64,000 nucleotides of DNA from Balneolales bacterium (GTDB taxonomy: Bacteria > Bacteroidota > Rhodothermia > Balneolales > HLUCCA01), in NCBI GenBank assembly GCA_024711145.1, contig JANJTJ010000002.1:31593-95592 (forward strand), in the 5' to 3' direction. Below are positions 36,762 through 44,047 of this stretch, in pieces (within the stretch, counting starts at the first letter, position 1; the number at the start of each line of letters is the position of its first letter). Below the pieces are notes generated by a model. It saw nothing but the letters and a program-made list of their open reading frames with translations, did not search any database and was not told the DNA's origin. Made by a program: the position numbers and the translations under genes.

Positions 36762-36852
36762 ACCGAGAGTTGATCCGTGCTTGTACCGTCGCAGTAACCA
36801 CCAATACCGAAGGAAGAACCACGTCACGTCGGAAGCACATACCGACGCATCC

Positions 36853-36860
36853 ACAAGATA
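36853..36860 (-). promoter_or_regulatory. -7-like box (TATCTTGT) for the RRM gene
   Basis: One mismatch to TAnnTTTG. It would give a 5' UTR of about 85-90 nt. Confidence 0.25.
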
Positions 36861-36889
36861 CACCGAATCTGTGCGAAAGAAACAAGTGC

Positions 36890-36897
36890 TATATTCG
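36890..36897 (+). promoter_or_regulatory. -7-like box (TATATTCG) for the sigma factor gene
   Basis: One mismatch to TAnnTTTG. It ends 6 nt before the ATG at 36904. Confidence 0.35.
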
Positions 36898-36903
36898 AAC
36901 ACC

Positions 36904-37545
36904 ATGAGTCAGGACAACGCGGATACGCCCGCAAGTGAACAAACGCCGCCCGTAAGCACGCCTTCGGCCAGCAGCAAGGAAGATCTCCGGTATGTGAACA
37001 AGGCGCTGAACGGCGATCAGTCGGCGTTCGCCTTCTTGTTGAACAAATACCGTAACCCCTTGTATTTCCACATCTTGCGCATGGTACATTACCGCGATAT
37101 GGTGGAAGATCTGTTGCAGGAAGTGTTCGTGAAGGCCTTCGACAACATCCATACCTACAATTCGCAGTACGCCTTTTCGACCTGGCTGTACCGGATCGCG
37201 ACGAACCATACGATCGATCATCTGCGCAAAAAAAAGTTGCGGACCTACTCGATCGACGAGCCCGTCCAGACCCGCGACGGCGAGATGCGGATCGAAGTGG
37301 CCGACGAAGACGCCACCGCCGACGACACCATCCTGCTGCACCAACGCCGGAACATCATCAATGAGGCGGTGGAGCAATTGCCCCCCCGCTACAAGGAAGT
37401 GATCCAACTCCGGCACATGGAAGACAAGAGTTACCAGGAGATCGCCGACCTGCTCGGCCTGCCTCTGGGTACGGTGAAAGCCCACATCTTCCGTGCCCGC
37501 GAAATGCTCTACAAGATCCTGCGCGATCGGGAAGGCGCCTTCTAG
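36904..37545 (+). CDS. ECF-type RNA polymerase sigma-70 family factor
   Basis: Region 2 (FSTWLYRIATNHTIDHLRKK) and region 4 (YQEIADLLGLPLGTVKAHIFRARE) are both present. Confidence 0.88.
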   Translation: MSQDNADTPASEQTPPVSTPSASSKEDLRYVNKALNGDQSAFAFLLNKYRNPLYFHILRMVHYRDMVEDLLQEVFVKAFDNIHTYNSQYAFSTWLYRIATNHTIDHLRKKKLRTYSIDEPVQTRDGEMRIEVADEDATADDTILLHQRRNIINEAVEQLPPRYKEVIQLRHMEDKSYQEIADLLGLPLGTVKAHIFRAREMLYKILRDREGAF

Positions 37546-38498
37546 GGCGTTTCCAGGTTCCGGAGCACGATCTCGGCATTTCGCTTGAGGCCGCCGAGCT
37601 TGGTGCGTTTCATGGCCGATCCCCGGAACACCTCCCGGTAGGTGGGCTCGTCGAGGCCGGCCCAGAATGCCGCATCGGCGGCGCGCAGCTCCGGCCGTGC
37701 CATCAACCGCGGTTCGGTTCCGGCTTTCGCTTTCCGGTTCCAAGGGCAAACGTCCTGGCAGATGTCGCATCCGTACATCCAGTTGCCCATCATCCGATGG
37801 TATTCGGCCGGTATGGCCTCGCGCAGTTCGATGGTCAGATAGCTGATGCATCGGGTGGCATCCACCACCTGGTCGGCTATGATGGCACCGGTAGGGCAGG
37901 CATCGATGCAGCGGGTACAGGTGCCGCAATGGTCTGTGGTGGGTGGGTCGGGCGAAAAGGCCGCATCCACGATCAATTCCCCGATGAAGAAGAAGGACCC
38001 CAGGTCCCGGTCCAGGAGGTTGCCGTTCTTGCCCTGCCATCCCAATCCGGAACGCCGGGCCCAGGCCTTGTCCATCACCGGAGCCGAATCGGTGAACCCG
38101 CGCCCCTCCACGGGTCCTACGGTCTCGCGGATGAAAGCCATCAGGGCTTCCAATTTGTCCCACATGACCCTGTGGTAGTCTTCGCCCTGGGCGTATTGCG
38201 ATACCCGCGGGCGGTCGGTAGCGGACCCGTCTTCGGCCCGGATATCGGGCTGGTTGTAGCTGAGAAGGACGGAGATGACGGTTTTGGCGCCGGGTACGAG
38301 CAAACGGGGGTCGGTCCGCAGGTCGAAATGCCCCTCCATCCAGCCCATGGTACCATGGCGGCCCTCGTTGAGCCAGCGTTCCAGGTGCCGGGCTTCGGGT
38401 TCCATGAAGGCGGCTTCGGCGAAAGCGCAGGCGTCGAAGCCGAGGGAGAGTGCCCGAAAACGGACGGATTCCTTGAGGATGTCGGGCAGGTGGTTCAC
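37542..38498 (-). CDS. queG: Epoxyqueuosine reductase
   Basis: CGTCTRCIDACPTGA and CDICQDVCPWN ferredoxin motifs within a QueG-length protein. The start is GTG. Confidence 0.88.
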   Translation of the reverse strand: MNHLPDILKESVRFRALSLGFDACAFAEAAFMEPEARHLERWLNEGRHGTMGWMEGHFDLRTDPRLLVPGAKTVISVLLSYNQPDIRAEDGSATDRPRVSQYAQGEDYHRVMWDKLEALMAFIRETVGPVEGRGFTDSAPVMDKAWARRSGLGWQGKNGNLLDRDLGSFFFIGELIVDAAFSPDPPTTDHCGTCTRCIDACPTGAIIADQVVDATRCISYLTIELREAIPAEYHRMMGNWMYGCDICQDVCPWNRKAKAGTEPRLMARPELRAADAAFWAGLDEPTYREVFRGSAMKRTKLGGLKRNAEIVLRNLETP

Positions 38499-38514
38499 AA
38501 GGCTGAATTTATCT

Positions 38515-38522
38515 TATCTTCG
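38515..38522 (+). promoter_or_regulatory. -7-like box (TATCTTCG) in front of the arg leader mini-ORF
   Basis: It lies in an AT-rich patch (GAATTTATCTTATCTTCG) and ends 4 nt before ATG 38527. Confidence 0.35.
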
Positions 38523-38526
38523 GCAC

Positions 38527-38610
38527 ATGCGTTTCGAAATCAGAGGCACCGCCGAGTCCCGACGAGTGAGGATGGCCAACCAGCCCTTCTCCGCGTCGCG
38601 CATGCCCTAG
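38527..38610 (+). promoter_or_regulatory. Putative Arg-rich leader peptide ORF (27 codons)
   Basis: MRFEIRGTAESRRVRMANQPFSASRMP*. Six Arg codons, four of them A/T-rich types (AGA, CGA, CGA, AGG). It sits between the -7-like box and a strong terminator, directly upstream of argG. Confidence 0.45.
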
Positions 38611-38643
38611 ATTCCGGAACGACCCTCGTTACCGAGCCTGAAA

Positions 38644-38676
38644 GGCGGCATCCACGCGGATGCCGCCTTTTTTTTT
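38644..38676 (+). terminator. Strong intrinsic terminator (candidate attenuator) 21 nt upstream of argG
   Basis: GGCGGCATCC-ACGC-GGATGCCGCC followed by T9. There is no plus-strand gene upstream that it could terminate, because queG is divergent. Confidence 0.8.
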
Positions 38677-38697
38677 GCCCACAACCGAATCCGCATC

Positions 38698-39894
38698 ATG
38701 TCTTCACCGGTCATCCTCGCCTACAGCGGGGGCCTCGATACCAGCTTCTGCATACCCTACCTGAAGGAAACCCTCGGCGCGGAGATCCACGCCGTAAGCG
38801 TGGACTGCGTGGGGCTGGATGCACCTGCCCGGGCGGCTCTCGAAGCCAAAGCCCGCCACTTCGGCGCCGACACGGCCCTCGTTCTGGACGGCACCCAAGC
38901 CCTCTACACCGATGTGTTGCGTTGGCTCATCCGGGGCGATGTGCTCCGCGACCGCACCTACCCGTTATGCGTGGGTGCCGAGCGTTTCGTGCAGGCCGAC
39001 CGGGTGGCGGCGTATGCCAGACAGGTGGGCGCCACCCGCATCGCCCACGGCAGCACGGGCGCCGGCAACGACCAGGTCCGGTTCGATGTGGCCTTGCGGG
39101 CGTTGTTACCGGGTTGCGAGGTGATCACGCCCATCCGCGACATGGGGCTCAGCCGCAGCCATACCACGGCCTGGTTGCGGGAACGCGGCTTCGAGGTGAG
39201 CGATTCCACCACCCGCTATTCCATCAACGACGGCATCTGGGGCACCACCATCGGCGGTGCGGAGACCACCCGGCCCGACACGGCGCTGCCGTTCGAGGCC
39301 TTCCCGCACCTGCAGGATCCGGCCTCCTTCACCCGGACACCCCAGGAAATCGTCATCGGTTTCGAGGCCGGGCTTCCGGTTTCGCTCGATGGCCAGGCCC
39401 TGCCTCCGCTTCCGTTGCTCGCCGCCCTGCGCGACCTGGGCCGGGAGCACGGCATCGGCCGGGGCATGCACCTGGGCGACACCATCCTCGGCATCAAAGG
39501 CCGCATCGGGTTCGAGGCTCCCGTGGCCACCATCCTGTTGGCGGCCCACCGCGAACTGGAGAAACTCACCCTCACCAAAGCCCAACGCCTGATCAAGGAC
39601 CAGTTGGGCGATACCTACGGCCTGATGCTGCACGAAGGCCAGTTCTATGATCCGGCCATGCGCGACATCGAGGCCTTCCTCGAGGCCAACCAACAGCCCG
39701 TAACCGGCTCCGTGACCCTGTACCTCGGCTACGGCCAATGCCTCCCACGGGCCGCATCATCCCCATACGGCCTCATGAACAGTGCCATAGCCACCTATGG
39801 CGAAGAAGCGGCCGGCTGGACCGGCGCCGAAGCCCGCGCGTTCTGCAAACTCGTCGGCATGTCCACCCAGATCGCCTTGTCCGTCCGTCCATGA
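38698..39894 (+). CDS. argG: Argininosuccinate synthase
   Basis: AYSGGLDTS, HGSTGAGNDQVRF and the rest of the sequence are canonical ArgG. Confidence 0.95.
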   Translation: MSSPVILAYSGGLDTSFCIPYLKETLGAEIHAVSVDCVGLDAPARAALEAKARHFGADTALVLDGTQALYTDVLRWLIRGDVLRDRTYPLCVGAERFVQADRVAAYARQVGATRIAHGSTGAGNDQVRFDVALRALLPGCEVITPIRDMGLSRSHTTAWLRERGFEVSDSTTRYSINDGIWGTTIGGAETTRPDTALPFEAFPHLQDPASFTRTPQEIVIGFEAGLPVSLDGQALPPLPLLAALRDLGREHGIGRGMHLGDTILGIKGRIGFEAPVATILLAAHRELEKLTLTKAQRLIKDQLGDTYGLMLHEGQFYDPAMRDIEAFLEANQQPVTGSVTLYLGYGQCLPRAASSPYGLMNSAIATYGEEAAGWTGAEARAFCKLVGMSTQIALSVRP

Positions 39895-40934
39895 CCATCG
39901 CATACGAAACCATCCAAGCCGACATCCTGGCTTCCACCAGTGCCGCCGTCAAACTCGGCCACCGGCTCACGCTCGCCAAAACCGTGGTGGCCCAGGAGGG
40001 CTACCTGGTGGCGGTTCGCACCCTGGACGACAAAGACACCTACAACAAGCTGGAAACCGTTACCGGCGATTTCGTGACCTACGGGCGCGACCAGTTGGTG
40101 GTGGGTGCCCTGGGCGAACGCCAGGCCCTGCGCGGGTACAGCGGAGTCATTCCCAGATCCGTGAAAGTGGGCGACATCCTGCACATCCTCAACATGGGCG
40201 GCATCATAGGTTCTTGCCAATCGCCGCACCCCGATTTCGGGCCGGCCATGCGCGTGGAAGTGCTCGGTGCCGTGATGGTCGAAGACGACGGGCACTGGAA
40301 ACACGCCTGCATCCAGGACCACGCCATCGACTGGATCTACGAACTGGGCGAAACCGTGCCGCTCATCGGCGTTACGGGTACGGCCATGAACGTGGGCAAA
40401 ACCATGGCCGCCAGCCAGATCGTGCGGCATTTGGCGGCGGCCGGCCACAAAGTGGGTGCCGTAAAGCTGACCGGTGCCAGCCTCATGCGCGACGTACGTT
40501 CCATGATGGACCAGGGGGCGGCCTTCTGCACGCATTTCTCCGAAGCCGGCCTGGTATCCACCACGGGCAAGAACATCCTGCCCATGGCCAAGGGGCTCAT
40601 CCATCATCTGAACGAGCAGCAACCGGACGTGATCGTCATGGAGTTCGGCGACGGCATCATCGGCCCGTACGGGGTAGACAGCCTGCTCATGGACAAGGAG
40701 ATCCAGCGGAACATCACCTGCCATGTGGTGGCCGCCCAGGATTTCATGGGATGTTGGGCCGCCGACAACTTCTTCCGGAAACGCTACAACCGGGGTATCG
40801 ATGTCATAACGGGTCCTGTGACCGACAATCTGGTAGGTATCCAATTCATCCAGAACACCATGGGTATCCGAGCGGTGAATGCCGTGGCCGAGCCCGAAAA
40901 ATTGGGCCAATGGGTTCGGGAGATCGCCCTATGA
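39891..40934 (+). CDS. Uncharacterised two-domain protein with a BioD/CobQ-like P-loop (347 aa), embedded in the arg operon
   Basis: ATGA overlaps with the argG stop and the argC start. It carries LIGVTGTAMNVGKTMAAS (GTxxxVGKT, as in dethiobiotin-synthetase-type P-loops) and a possible Walker-B-like VIVMEFGDG. I do not recognise the N-terminal ~150 aa. Confidence 0.6.
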   Translation: MTIAYETIQADILASTSAAVKLGHRLTLAKTVVAQEGYLVAVRTLDDKDTYNKLETVTGDFVTYGRDQLVVGALGERQALRGYSGVIPRSVKVGDILHILNMGGIIGSCQSPHPDFGPAMRVEVLGAVMVEDDGHWKHACIQDHAIDWIYELGETVPLIGVTGTAMNVGKTMAASQIVRHLAAAGHKVGAVKLTGASLMRDVRSMMDQGAAFCTHFSEAGLVSTTGKNILPMAKGLIHHLNEQQPDVIVMEFGDGIIGPYGVDSLLMDKEIQRNITCHVVAAQDFMGCWAADNFFRKRYNRGIDVITGPVTDNLVGIQFIQNTMGIRAVNAVAEPEKLGQWVREIAL

Positions 40935-41905
40935 ACCGCATACCGGTCGCACTGGTTGGTGCCAGCGGGTACACGGGTGCCGAGCTCATCCGCTATCTGA
41001 TGGGGCATCCGGTGTTCGAATTGACGGAATTCTATGGGGATTCCTCCGCCGGCAAACGCATCGGTCAGGTGCATCCGGCTTTCGATGGCTATGTGGATGC
41101 GGAGATCCGGCCCATGGCTGCGATAGGGACCACCCATGCGGAAACCGTGATCCTGGCCCTGCCGCACGGGAAAAGTGCGGCCGTGGTGGATGGCCTGCTG
41201 CAGGCCGGATACGCCGGCAAAGTGGTGGATCTGGGCAACGATTTCCGTCCACCCAACGAGGCGCCCGCACCTTTCGCGTACGGATTGACCGAATGGATGG
41301 GGGTAGCATGGGAAGAGGTGCGGTTTCTGGCCAATCCGGGTTGTTTCGCCACGGCCCTGCAGTTGGTGATGCTGCCCATGCTGAAAGCCGGCTACCGGGG
41401 CCGGTTCCATGCCACCCTGATCACCGGGTCCAGCGGGTCGGGCGCCACGCCGAGCGCAACCACCCATTATTCGAGCCGGTTCGGCAACCTGAATGCCTAC
41501 AAGGTGTTCGGACACCAGCACGAGGCGGAGGTGGCGGCCCACTGTGCCACCATGGCGGGCAGGGTGCCGGACCTGAGTTTCGTGCCCGTTTCGGGACCGT
41601 TCGTGCGGGGGATATGGGGCACGCTATTGCTGGATGCGGGTGCCCCGGATCCGGCGCGGGTGTTCGCCGAGGCGTACGCCCGGGCACCGCTGGTACGCCT
41701 GCGCGACCGCCTGCCCGAGCTCAAGCCCGTGGTGGGCACGGCCTTCGCCGACCTGGGCTGGGTGCGCCAAGGCGACCATACCGTGGTCGGCGTGGCCATC
41801 GACAACCTGGGCAAAGGGGCGGCCGGTCAGGCCGTCCAGAACCTGAACCGCATGTACGGCCTGGCAGAGACCACCGGCTTGCTCATACCACCCATCATCC
41901 TATGA
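40931..41905 (+). CDS. argC: N-acyl-gamma-glutamyl-phosphate reductase
   Basis: VALVGASGYTGAELIR, the active-site region ANPGCFATA and the C-terminal DNLGKGAAGQAVQNLN. Confidence 0.93.
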   Translation: MNRIPVALVGASGYTGAELIRYLMGHPVFELTEFYGDSSAGKRIGQVHPAFDGYVDAEIRPMAAIGTTHAETVILALPHGKSAAVVDGLLQAGYAGKVVDLGNDFRPPNEAPAPFAYGLTEWMGVAWEEVRFLANPGCFATALQLVMLPMLKAGYRGRFHATLITGSSGSGATPSATTHYSSRFGNLNAYKVFGHQHEAEVAAHCATMAGRVPDLSFVPVSGPFVRGIWGTLLLDAGAPDPARVFAEAYARAPLVRLRDRLPELKPVVGTAFADLGWVRQGDHTVVGVAIDNLGKGAAGQAVQNLNRMYGLAETTGLLIPPIIL

Positions 41906-43059
41906 CCGCCGCCGACTGCATCGCCACGGAAGACCGTTACGAAGCGGCCACTTATGCCCGCTGGCCCGTCGTGTTCGAACGGGGAGAGGGCATCCATCTC
42001 TTCGATACCGCCGGCAAACGGTACGTGGACCTCTACGGCGGGCACTGCGTGGCCTGCCTGGGGCATTCCCCCCAGCACGTGGTGGCCGCCATCCACCGGC
42101 AGGCCACCGAACTGCCCTTCTATTCGAACCTGATGTACCACCCGTCGCGGGCCCGGGCGGCCCGGAAACTGGTGGAGATGGCCGACGGGTTCGACCGGGT
42201 GTTCTTCTGCAATTCGGGTACCGAAGCCAACGAGAACGCTATCAAACTGGCCTTCAAGGCCACGGGCAAAACCCGCATGGTCTCCACGGTGGGCGGGTGG
42301 CACGGCCGTACGCTGGCCTCTCTCAGCGTGACCCATACCTGGAAGCTGCGCGAACCGGTGGCGTTCGCGCTACCGGAAGTGGATTTCGTGCCCTTCGGCG
42401 ATGCCGACGCCTTGGAGCGACTCTTCGTGGAACGCGACGACATCGCCGGATTCATCCTGGAACCCATACAGAGCATATCGGGCATGGTGATGGCCGATGC
42501 GGCCTATTACCGCCGCATCCGGCAGATCTGCGACCGGCACGGCGTGATCCTCATTTTCGATGAGATCCAGACCGGGGTGGGCCGCACCGGAACCTTCACT
42601 TTCGGGGAAGGTGTGGGCATGCGACCCGACCTGGTGACCCTGGCCAAGAGTCTGGGATCCGGGTTTCCCATCGGTGCCGTGCTCATGCCCGAACGGATTG
42701 CCGGGCTGTTGAAGAACGGCGACCTGGGGTCCACCTTCGCCGGTGGCATGATGGCCATGGCCGCCTGCGAAGCCACCCTGGATGCGATTGCCGACCAAGG
42801 GCTCATGCATCATGTGGCAGTATTGGAAGAGGAGATGCGCAAGGCACTGGCCGGCAGTGGGTTGGATGTGCTCGGCAAGGGCGCGTTATTGGGTGTGGCG
42901 CTGCCCGTGGCCGCCGCTCCCGTGGTCAAAGCCCTCTTCGCCGAAGGATGGATAACCGGCACGTCCGACCATCCGAACGTCATCCGGCTCATGCCACCCT
43001 ACATCACCCCATCCGGCGTGCTGACCGAGTTCGCCCAAGTCCTCCGACATCATGTCTGA
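41902..43059 (+). CDS. argD: N-acyl-ornithine aminotransferase (class III PLP)
   Basis: NSGTEANENAIKLA, FDEIQTGVGRTG and LAKSLGSGFPIGA (the PLP lysine region). Confidence 0.9.
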   Translation: MTAADCIATEDRYEAATYARWPVVFERGEGIHLFDTAGKRYVDLYGGHCVACLGHSPQHVVAAIHRQATELPFYSNLMYHPSRARAARKLVEMADGFDRVFFCNSGTEANENAIKLAFKATGKTRMVSTVGGWHGRTLASLSVTHTWKLREPVAFALPEVDFVPFGDADALERLFVERDDIAGFILEPIQSISGMVMADAAYYRRIRQICDRHGVILIFDEIQTGVGRTGTFTFGEGVGMRPDLVTLAKSLGSGFPIGAVLMPERIAGLLKNGDLGSTFAGGMMAMAACEATLDAIADQGLMHHVAVLEEEMRKALAGSGLDVLGKGALLGVALPVAAAPVVKALFAEGWITGTSDHPNVIRLMPPYITPSGVLTEFAQVLRHHV

Positions 43060-44047
43060 AGTGCGTCATTTCCTGCATCTGCGCGATTGGTCCGATGCCG
43101 AACTGCATGGGTTGCTCGATCTGGCCGCCCGACTCAAAACCGAGGGTCACAGGTCCCGCGAGGCGGCGGGCAAGGTGTTGGGCCTGCTTTTCTTCAACCC
43201 GTCCCTGCGTACCAAAGTCTCCTTCGAAACCGCCGCGGCGCACCTGGGAGCGGCCAGCAGCCTCATTTCGCCAGGGCAGGGGAGTTGGTCTCTGGAGACC
43301 GGAGACGGGGTGGTGATGGATGGAAACAAGACCGAACATGTGAAGGAGGCCATCCAGGTGCTCTCGCGGTATGTGGATACCCTGGGTGTTCGGGCGTTCG
43401 AGGCGGACGATGCCGAATTGGCCCGCATGGCTTCCTATGCTGCGGTGCCCTTGATCAACCTGGAGAGTGCCACGGAGCATCCCTGCCAGGGGCTGGCCGA
43501 CTGGCTCACCCTGCGCGAGCTCTTCGGTCCCAAGCCGGCGGGCAAGACCTTCGTGCTGAGCTGGGCGCCGCATCCGGTGCGGTTGCCGGTTGCCGTACCG
43601 AACACCGCCCTCGAAGTGGCCAGCCGTAGCGGTATGGATGTCCGGGTGGTGTGTCCGCCGGAATACGTGCCGGATGCGCCCCGTCTGGAAGCCGCCGCCG
43701 CAGCCTGTGCCCGCCATGGCAGCCGGTTCGACCTCGTGCACGACCAAGCCACCGGATTCGAAGGCGCGCATGTGGTCTATGCCAAGAGTTGGGGGGCGCC
43801 GGCTTTGGCTGCCGAACCCGAACGGGAACAGGCCCTGCGTTGGGAAACCTATAGGAATTGGACCGTGTCGCCCGAGCTCATGGCACGCACAGACCAGGCC
43901 GCCTTCATGCATTGCCTGCCGGTTCGGCGGAATGTGGTGGTGGCCGACGCCGTGCTCGACTCACCCGCGGCGGTTCACATCCGCCAGGCCGAGAACCGCA
44001 TGCATGTGCAAAAAGCCCTGTTGATGCAGCTATGGCATCTGTCCTGA
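43052..44047 (+). CDS. argF': N-acyl-L-ornithine carbamoyltransferase (AOTCase/SOTCase type)
   Basis: FFNPSLRTKVSFE replaces the S-T-R-T-R motif of OTCases. HPCQGLAD and HCLPVRRN are also present, a pattern I associate with the acetyl/succinyl-ornithine transcarbamylase family. Confidence 0.75.
   Translation: MSEVRHFLHLRDWSDAELHGLLDLAARLKTEGHRSREAAGKVLGLLFFNPSLRTKVSFETAAAHLGAASSLISPGQGSWSLETGDGVVMDGNKTEHVKEAIQVLSRYVDTLGVRAFEADDAELARMASYAAVPLINLESATEHPCQGLADWLTLRELFGPKPAGKTFVLSWAPHPVRLPVAVPNTALEVASRSGMDVRVVCPPEYVPDAPRLEAAAAACARHGSRFDLVHDQATGFEGAHVVYAKSWGAPALAAEPEREQALRWETYRNWTVSPELMARTDQAAFMHCLPVRRNVVVADAVLDSPAAVHIRQAENRMHVQKALLMQLWHLS

Follow-up and report, generated by a model that had tools for sequence, protein, structure and literature searches.

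Is arginine biosynthesis controlled anywhere by a leader peptide that senses arginine through its own codons? The question is raised by a 64,000-nucleotide stretch of a Balneolales bacterium genome (GenBank assembly GCA_024711145.1, contig JANJTJ010000002.1, positions 31,593 to 95,592; the whole stretch is called the window here), in which the genes queG and argG diverge from a short spacer that a first-pass annotation had read as a putative arginine attenuator. Leader-peptide attenuation is a textbook mechanism with arginine as its conspicuous gap, and arginine pathways are taught as ArgR-repressor regulons. Judged from the DNA and its relatives, the spacer is probably a trp-type ribosome-mediated transcription attenuator of the operon argG-X-argC-argD-argF', where X is a 347-aa gene, and would be set by the supply of charged tRNA-Arg. 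The analysis also supports placing it in a family of Arg-codon leader-peptide attenuators that is conserved and apparently undescribed, is predicted to work like trpL and bears no sequence relation to known leader families.

The spacer covers 199 nt (38499-38697), from the queG GTG on the minus strand at 38498 to the argG ATG on the plus strand at 38698, and as a whole it folds 4.4 standard deviations better than dinucleotide shuffles (z = -4.4). The elements reported earlier were all present, in the order and at the positions given: the 199-nt spacer itself, an A/T-rich box, a 27-codon open reading frame (ORF), a hairpin with a T9 tract, and argG 21 nt further on. The box, TATCTTCG, occupies 38515-38522, and the leader ATG (38527) lies 4 nt beyond it. 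The leader ORF (38527..38610, plus strand) encodes MRFEIRGTAESRRVRMANQPFSASRMP and ends with TAG at 38608-38610; it is absent from public gene calls. Its six Arg codons are CGT, AGA, CGA, CGA, AGG and CGC. Since the ORFs of the window use CGC (40%), CGG (35%), CGT (10%), CGA (7.5%), AGG (7.0%) and AGA (1.3%), four of the six (AGA, CGA, CGA, AGG) are rare types, which bears out the previous count. By our arithmetic, at least four rare codons out of six have P ~0.007 at the window frequencies, a value that applies only if the ORF is translated. Three of them, codons 12, 13 and 15, form the cluster CGA CGA GUG AGG at 38560..38571 (plus strand), which is the proposed stall site; the Arg runs of relatives are similarly placed, just 5' of the conserved box described below.

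The terminator hairpin, GGCGGCATCC/ACGC/GGATGCCGCC followed by T9, lies at 38644-38676 (as GGCGGCAUCC/ACGC/GGAUGCCGCC followed by U9). The 10 bp stem described earlier is there, but it is an underestimate, as A:U pairs lengthen it to 13-14 bp (38640/41-38670/71). The isolated hairpin has a stability of -24.0 kcal/mol, and no other plus-strand terminator of comparable strength was found in the window. As the T tract ends just 21 nt short of the ATG, argG is most likely transcribed by read-through. In the window alone, the terminator was the sole element beyond chance.

Relatives were gathered as argG loci from 80 species genomes and 80 metagenome contigs and, by protein search and contig look-ups, from 9 closer relatives. 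The window ArgG is at most 71% identical to proteins in the public collections, its nearest named relatives being metagenome-assembled genomes of Balneolales and Rhodothermales; the scan of metagenome contigs gave 51% identity at best, and the relatives at 65-71% came from the protein search and contig look-ups. Fifteen divergent leaders from Balneolales- and Rhodothermales-like loci, with ArgG 51-71% identical to that of the window, have a common layout: a -10 box, an ATG 5-10 nt later, an ORF 20-36 codons long, a box located at its stop, a terminator and argG. The terminator-to-argG distance is 16-38 nt, with 62 nt in locus L007 and 109 nt in L004. Despite this shared layout, the leader sequences in the group are mostly unalignable. 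What lies upstream varies from locus to locus, being queG, an amidohydrolase, a PIN gene or a zinc-ribbon gene, so the leader element travels with argG. It always stands at the 5' end of the operon, and in other Bacteroidota it precedes a GNAT gene located ahead of argG. The leader was not found in the Rhodothermales loci L005 and L006, and no convincing leader was seen in the non-Bacteroidota loci of the sets (Acidobacteria, Lysobacterales, Planctomycetia). In L006, at ~100-1400, that is, 1.6-2.9 kb upstream of argG, five small ORFs about 300 nt apart end in ...RRRRLD, ...RRRRD or ...RRRRRRD; they look like a coding region with tandem repeats read out of frame, and not like leaders.

Both alternative helices of the switch covary among these relatives. 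A conserved box, GAAGRYURUGUCY, is found at the leader stop and is complementary to the 5' arm and loop of the terminator (GGGCAGAAUCUUC). In the alignment, pairing reaches 91% for the terminator, where five pairs are compensatory. For the antiterminator, over 13 sequences, it is 90%, and four of the pairs have changes on both sides; control registers slid by 1-3 columns gave 38-54%. One alignment column, 231, covaries with each of the two partners it could pair with, a pattern that helices excluding one another should produce. The box:arm duplex was better than shuffled boxes in 10 of 13 leaders (P <= 0.018), and the cognate arm ranked first or second in 11 of 13. When a ribosome was modelled on the Arg cluster with the 3' arm untranscribed, the box folded onto the 5' arm in every leader, including that of the window, while with the ribosome modelled at the stop codon the terminator formed. 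Folded without a ribosome, the RNA pairs its Arg-codon region with the box, significantly so against shuffles only in L170, L171, L002 and L004. The stop codon lies -1 to +15 nt from the box in all 13 leaders tested (per-sequence chance 0.11-0.19), so that a terminating ribosome would always cover the box.

A covariance model (R1) of the box and terminator consensus, built from 12 relatives with the window left out, matched the window at 38641-38677 (model positions 83-119) through the terminator part only, with 30.2 bits and E = 8e-5. It was the sole plus-strand match in the 64 kb up to E = 10, the second listed match being the reverse complement of the same hairpin, and 607 kb of other loci gave no spurious match. 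R1 did not detect three Rhodothermales leaders (L007, L008 and L084), which are related by architecture only. Searches with Rfam 15 of the spacer, the whole window and 20-21 related loci gave nothing at the gathering score, including Trp, His, Leu and Thr leaders, T-boxes and riboswitches. A match to a known unrelated RNA family, which would have spoken against the attenuator, did not appear in these searches. The best Rfam match, ncS54, reached 23.2 bits against a threshold of 43 and was driven by the terminator; such sub-threshold matches to small-RNA families were rejected as terminator look-alikes.

Clear Arg runs followed by a terminator are present in eight leaders. The runs are IRRRRP in L002 (MKTNAIHSPRPSIRRRRPGNRPSEGYVF), RRLRRRR in L003 (...TVRRLRRRRTGK...), RRRRFRRR in L004 (...TSSRRRRFRRRSVV...), LRRRF in L007 (...DSLRRRFVAHRYS), RRRARRVRR in both L008 and L084 (...TTRRRARRVRRLH...), RRRLRR in L170 (MMLNRLTPIENRRRLRRKSCS) and RRRLSR in L171 (MQKISLFTPTRRRLSRKTCE). 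The conservation of an Arg-rich mini-ORF together with a terminator, which had been named as a check on the proposal, thus came out positive. Over the 15 leaders, Arg codons make up 80 of 411 codons in frame (19.5%) and 35 of 396 (8.8%) and 37 of 396 (9.3%) in the other two frames; taken singly, seven leaders are enriched with P = 0.0004-0.05. These terminator-type (class-T) leaders use varied synonymous Arg codons, and outside Arg their peptides have no conserved residues in the clade; no conserved arrest peptide of the fungal AAP type was seen. Clusters of the R-x-E-R type with two or three Arg codons occur in L162, L164, L166 and L168. An in-frame AGG a few codons 5' of the box is kept in all ten members of the window's clade. 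In L172 (1328-1420) and L173 (1329-1415), the promoter, ORF, box and terminator are kept with only one or two Arg codons (one in L173), always including the conserved AGG; this sub-lineage has either confined sensing to one rare codon or ceased to sense Arg. The arginine-sensing, ribosome-mediated attenuator suggested by the first-pass annotation is supported by the in-frame Arg excess, the stop-at-box placement in 13 of 13 leaders and the compensatory changes in both helices.

The transcription start was studied by comparison of the upstream regions. The A/T-rich box had been described as -7-like, but it aligns with a conserved -10 hexamer and not with the Bacteroidetes-type -7 box. In the window the hexamer is TATCTT (38515..38520, plus strand), 6 nt 5' of the leader ATG, and it matches the aligned TATCAT or TATCTA of nine relatives. 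In the relatives, a -35 element (TTCCAT, TTGATT or TTGCAT) stands exactly 17 nt 5' of the -10, and the ATG follows 5-7 nt past it. Since the -10-to-ATG spacing is conserved, the leader mRNA is predicted to be leaderless or nearly so, with its start at the ATG or a few nucleotides from it. A candidate -35 for the window, TTCACA (38494..38499, plus strand), is weakly supported, lying 15 nt from the -10 box and within the first codons of the divergent queG; a consensus scan at the window leader found no sigma-70 site. Within 38494-38530 (both strands), the queG GTG (38498) and the leader ATG (38527) stand no more than 28 nt apart. With the starts so close, the divergent promoters of queG and the leader must overlap in the A/T-rich segment AATTTATCTTATCTT, and the leader -35 would fall inside the first queG codons.

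Four regions of the plus strand would take part in switching. Region 1 (38545..38577) contains the Arg codons and, in minimum free energy structures, pairs with the box in ribosome-free RNA, acting as an anti-antiterminator. Region 2 (38593..38606) is the box itself, GCGU(C)G(C)G(C)AUGCC in the window, aligned with GAAGRYURUGUCY of the relatives; it ends 2 nt before the stop and would serve as the 5' strand of the antiterminator. Region 3 (38641..38657) comprises the terminator 5' arm (38641-38653) and the ACGC loop (38654-38657) and can pair with either the box or the 3' arm. Region 4 (38658..38676) consists of the 3' arm (38658-38670), with compensatory changes in relatives, and the T9 tract (38668-38676). 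The switching mechanism had been left unresolved in the earlier reading; the helix now proposed joins 38593-38606 with 38647-38657 through 11 bp with three single-C bulges, an extra small helix GCCU:AGGC occupying 38643-38646, although this pairing is weak in the window. Two pairings had been seen by eye. GACGAG with CTCGTT was missing from every predicted fold of the window, relatives being outside the scope of that check. Energy alone (-14.6 kcal/mol) would allow the other, GGATGGCC with the terminator 5' arm, but it falls inside the footprint of the stalled ribosome and does not align with the box of the relatives.

The working of the attenuator is deduced from this anatomy and from the covariation, so the start site, translation, stalling and response to arginine all have the standing of predictions. 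Transcription would start at the leader ATG or within a few nucleotides of it, and a ribosome would translate the 27 codons. With Arg-tRNA plentiful, it would reach the UAG (38608) and cover the box at 38593-38606; the terminator (38641-38670 plus T9) would then form, and transcription would end 21 nt before argG. With Arg-tRNA scarce, the ribosome would stall at CGA-CGA-GUG-AGG (38560-38571), melt the pairing of region 1 with the box and leave the box free, which could pair with 38647-38657 before the 3' arm is made, so that the polymerase would read through into argG. Without translation, region 1 would hold the box and termination would be the default. The modelled folds of the window follow the same pattern: a ribosome on codons 12-15, with the 3' arm not yet made, gave a three-way antiterminator domain of -21 to -24 kcal/mol, a ribosome at UAG gave the terminator only, and in the ribosome-free RNA the box was held by 38545-38565.

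Several observations weigh against this reading, most of them concerning the window copy. The Arg content of its ORF is within chance in composition-matched shuffles (P = 0.11 for six Arg codons, and P = 0.11 for three within four codons). The box:arm duplex of -12.6 kcal/mol is no better than that of shuffled boxes (P = 0.38), the pairing of region 1 with the box does not exceed shuffles, and R1 leaves the window box unaligned. Even in the stalled-ribosome state the window terminator remains 11.9 kcal/mol more stable. In addition, the -35 is poor, its spacing is off (15 vs 17 nt) and it overlaps the queG start, while an ArgR operator may overlap the leader promoter. Among the nearest relatives of the window, L162, L166, L168, L172 and L173 carry 1-5 scattered Arg codons that are not enriched by shuffling. 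The gap between terminator and antiterminator is 0-3 kcal/mol in most relatives, and +12.0 kcal/mol in the Arg-rich and GC-rich L008. Since the terminator state is 11.9 kcal/mol more stable, the switch in the window would have to be kinetic. A kinetic working is also ascribed to E. coli trp, where pairing 2:3 amounts to roughly -12 and 3:4 to roughly -20 kcal/mol. The window appears to have the full trp-type logic in weak form and to be among the weaker copies as modelled; that it is itself a functional Arg-responsive attenuator is nonetheless likely.

Other explanations share part of these observations. The box/terminator switch might be real and yet be flipped by an RNA-binding protein, an as yet undescribed ligand-sensing RNA or the overall efficiency of translation, with the ORF providing coupling or being incidental. 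This would accommodate the few Arg codons of the window and its nearest relatives, down to one in L173. It would also suit the conserved nucleotides GAGAGGAC and GAAGRYURUGUC, which are RNA-level elements, since they are read in different frames in L002 and L162. Such a mechanism is unlikely, however, given that the ATG, the ORF length and the stop-at-box placement are kept in all leaders, that most lineages have Arg runs with 3-nt periodicity, and that neither a conserved structured domain from the ATG to the box nor an Rfam match was found. More doubtful still is that the window copy is a decaying relic, its terminator being a constitutive damper or bypassed and arginine being controlled elsewhere, for instance by an ArgR-type repressor at the overlapping divergent promoters. 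The window does have the weakest antiterminator relative to its terminator (a difference of +11.9 kcal/mol) and a non-significant Arg enrichment, and the A/T-rich, partly conserved promoter spacer (CTGAAT... and TTCAAAT in relatives) could be an operator. Against this, the ORF, its in-frame RRVR cluster of rare codons and the stop-at-box geometry are intact; L008, with an equally large difference, bears a clear 10-Arg leader; and the E. coli trp terminator is itself about 8 kcal/mol stronger than its antiterminator.

Two further explanations concern what the leader senses and whether it acts on argG at all. The nascent chain might arrest the ribosome on the stop or close to it, as with fungal AAP or TnaC, and so sense free arginine rather than tRNA charging. 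The ends of many Bacteroidota leaders read ...RRRP-stop and the end of the window leader ...SRMP-stop, Pro-stop being a slow-termination context known from TnaC. A ribosome arrested on the stop codon would mask the box and bring about termination at high arginine, which is the same logic and hard to distinguish by sequence; this mode of sensing is very improbable all the same, since it needs a conserved arrest peptide and none was seen, the terminator-type peptides being unconserved outside their Arg codons. Scarcely credible, finally, is that the region has no part in argG control and is an independent gene, with a terminator of its own, for a small RNA or small protein. Its extent from promoter to terminator, about 150 nt, and the weak, terminator-driven resemblances to small-RNA families below threshold would agree with it, but the 21 nt from the T tract to the ATG leave no room for a separate promoter, and through rearranged neighbourhoods and from phylum to phylum the unit remains attached to argG or to whichever gene opens the arg operon. 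The Arg-codon attenuator remains the preferred reading of the spacer.

Arg-run leaders were also found in other Bacteroidota. These class-F leaders consist of an Arg-run mini-ORF about 50-135 nt ahead of the GNAT acetyltransferase gene that directly precedes argG. Some 25 of the 74 genome loci and around a dozen of the 59 metagenome loci have them, about 40 loci together, in Flavobacteriaceae, Cytophagales, Saprospiraceae, Chitinophagales, some Bacteroidales and Gracilimonas, with typical ends ...TPVRRRRP-stop, ...SPLRRRRRFIFRV-stop and ...VRRRIPRRP-stop. When triplets of all 20 amino acids were compared in small upstream ORFs, triple Arg was by far the commonest, occurring at 34 of 74 loci, where Lys gave 16 and Leu 14. 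The reverse-strand control gave Arg-run ORFs at 18 loci vs 34, but CGN repeats confound this comparison, as they encode Arg whichever strand is read. In the class-F alignment the Arg codons vary between species at third positions only. In the Flavobacteriia type, the ORF ends ...RRRRP-stop within an invariant CGCCC-GUAA-GGGUG hairpin that has the stop codon in its loop, and beyond it stands a second hairpin, which covaries, has AGGUGAGUCC as its invariant loop and lacks a U tract. This type (L029, L034, L037, L038, L040, L051, L055, L058, L066, L073, L081, L101, L107, L116, L118 and L126) lies about 700-900 nt upstream of argG, for example at 2211-2367 in L037, and has no Rfam match. It is probably a second, mechanistically different class of arginine leader ahead of GNAT-argG operons, and the missing U tract suggests a different output.

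Taking both classes together, the evidence tips slightly towards a broader reading, in which arginine biosynthesis across Bacteroidota, Rhodothermota and Balneolota would be governed by hitherto undescribed Arg-codon leader peptides on leaderless or near-leaderless transcripts. Two architectures would exist: the trp-like switch directly before argG, and the Flavobacteriia/Cytophagia type with its Arg run ending the ORF in the CGCCC-GUAA-GGGUG hairpin before the AGGUGAGUCC-loop hairpin. The window's clade would perhaps have narrowed its sensing to one rare AGG, that is, to a single tRNA-Arg isoacceptor.

The genes to be regulated form a single arginine operon of the acetylated Bacteroidetes/Xanthomonas type (38698..44047, plus strand), identified with Pfam and NCBIfam and found in the same order in relatives. 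It comprises argG (38698-39894), the 347-aa gene (39891-40934), argC (40931-41905), argD (41902-43059) and N-acetylornithine carbamoyltransferase, argF' (43052-44047), all on the plus strand. The 347-aa product belongs to no Pfam or NCBIfam family and has a weak P-loop/bioD-like stretch at residues 161-197. Its ORF is kept at the same place, between argG and argC, in all terminator-type relatives (354-359 aa), and it fills the operon slot held by the GNAT acetyltransferase in other Bacteroidota. Because of that position, it may be an unrecognised enzyme of the arginine pathway.

Upstream of the spacer, the first-pass annotation had placed no plus-strand gene. This does not hold, as a sigma-70 family gene lies at 36781-37545 on the plus strand, separated from the spacer by the minus-strand queG. 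This sigma-70/ECF-type gene converges on queG with a 4-nt overlap and without a terminator. The argG-leader terminator is the first strong plus-strand terminator past it (36781-38676) and could also stop antisense read-through over queG. On the minus strand, rpmI-rplT are followed at about 1935-1990 by a very strong terminator (-25.4 kcal/mol, T10), and from the end of its T tract it is about 24 nt to the pheS start codon; no leader ORF can be seen there, in contrast to E. coli pheST with its Phe-codon pheM leader.

If the proposal is true, it adds a new specificity to the attenuator class and extends classical attenuation to Bacteroidota-related phyla, where initiation is largely without a leading Shine-Dalgarno sequence. 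It would also provide a compact case of a leaderless sensory ORF and a ready arginine sensor part for these organisms. The expression of arg operons in many environmental and gut Bacteroidota would then report tRNA-Arg charging and not free arginine, as the leaders suggest. In practice it would flag dozens of unannotated regulatory mini-ORFs. The first-pass annotation was aware of no established arginine attenuator, and in full-text searches no Arg-codon transcription attenuator of arginine biosynthesis was found; subscription-only papers were outside the scope of the search, and an earlier mention in them is possible. Nor does arginine appear in the broad survey of attenuators by Naville and Gautheret.

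Several known systems resemble the proposed leader in part. The Salmonella speF leader orf34 gauges the arginine supply by pausing at consecutive Arg codons of an upstream ORF, which switches the mRNA conformation, and it controls ornithine decarboxylase through Rho-dependent termination, unfolding of the ribosome-binding site and RNase G decay (Ben-Zvi et al. 2019, PMC6386406). It differs in that its target is not arginine biosynthesis and it has no intrinsic terminator/antiterminator pair. The mycobacterial polycysteine ORFs (Canestrari et al., bioRxiv 10.1101/834739) share a leaderless sensory small ORF with a run of cognate codons, stalling that remodels the downstream RNA and repetition across loci, but they act on translation, whereas the output here would be an intrinsic terminator, and the amino acid and phylum differ. 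In S. aureus rbfL, rare Arg codons (AGA and AGG) in a small upstream ORF detect a shortage of arginine by ribosome pausing, and the window's clade likewise keeps a rare in-frame AGG; in rbfL, the paused ribosome occludes a downstream ribosome-binding site, so that translation of a biofilm regulator is repressed in starvation (Kohl et al. 2026, PMC13009471). The regulatory logic of rbfL is thus opposite to that proposed for the window leader. Fungal AAP, encoded by the arg-2/CPA1 upstream ORF, likewise couples the expression of an arginine pathway to the arginine level. It is a eukaryotic system in which free arginine is sensed by a conserved nascent peptide that acts on translation and scanning, whereas here the peptide is unconserved and the predicted output is transcription termination.

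The fullest likeness is with trpL, hisL, leuL, thrL, ilvL and pheL of E. coli and Salmonella. As in these leaders, a short ORF carries codons for the end product, three exclusive pairings (1:2, 2:3 and 3:4) are predicted, an intrinsic terminator stands just before the first structural gene, and the stop is placed so that a terminating ribosome would cover region 2. The differences are the amino acid, arginine, the host phyla, Bacteroidota, Rhodothermota and Balneolota, and an ORF that apparently begins at the 5' end of the transcript without a Shine-Dalgarno leader. The arginine leader would thus be a known mechanism with a new amino-acid specificity.

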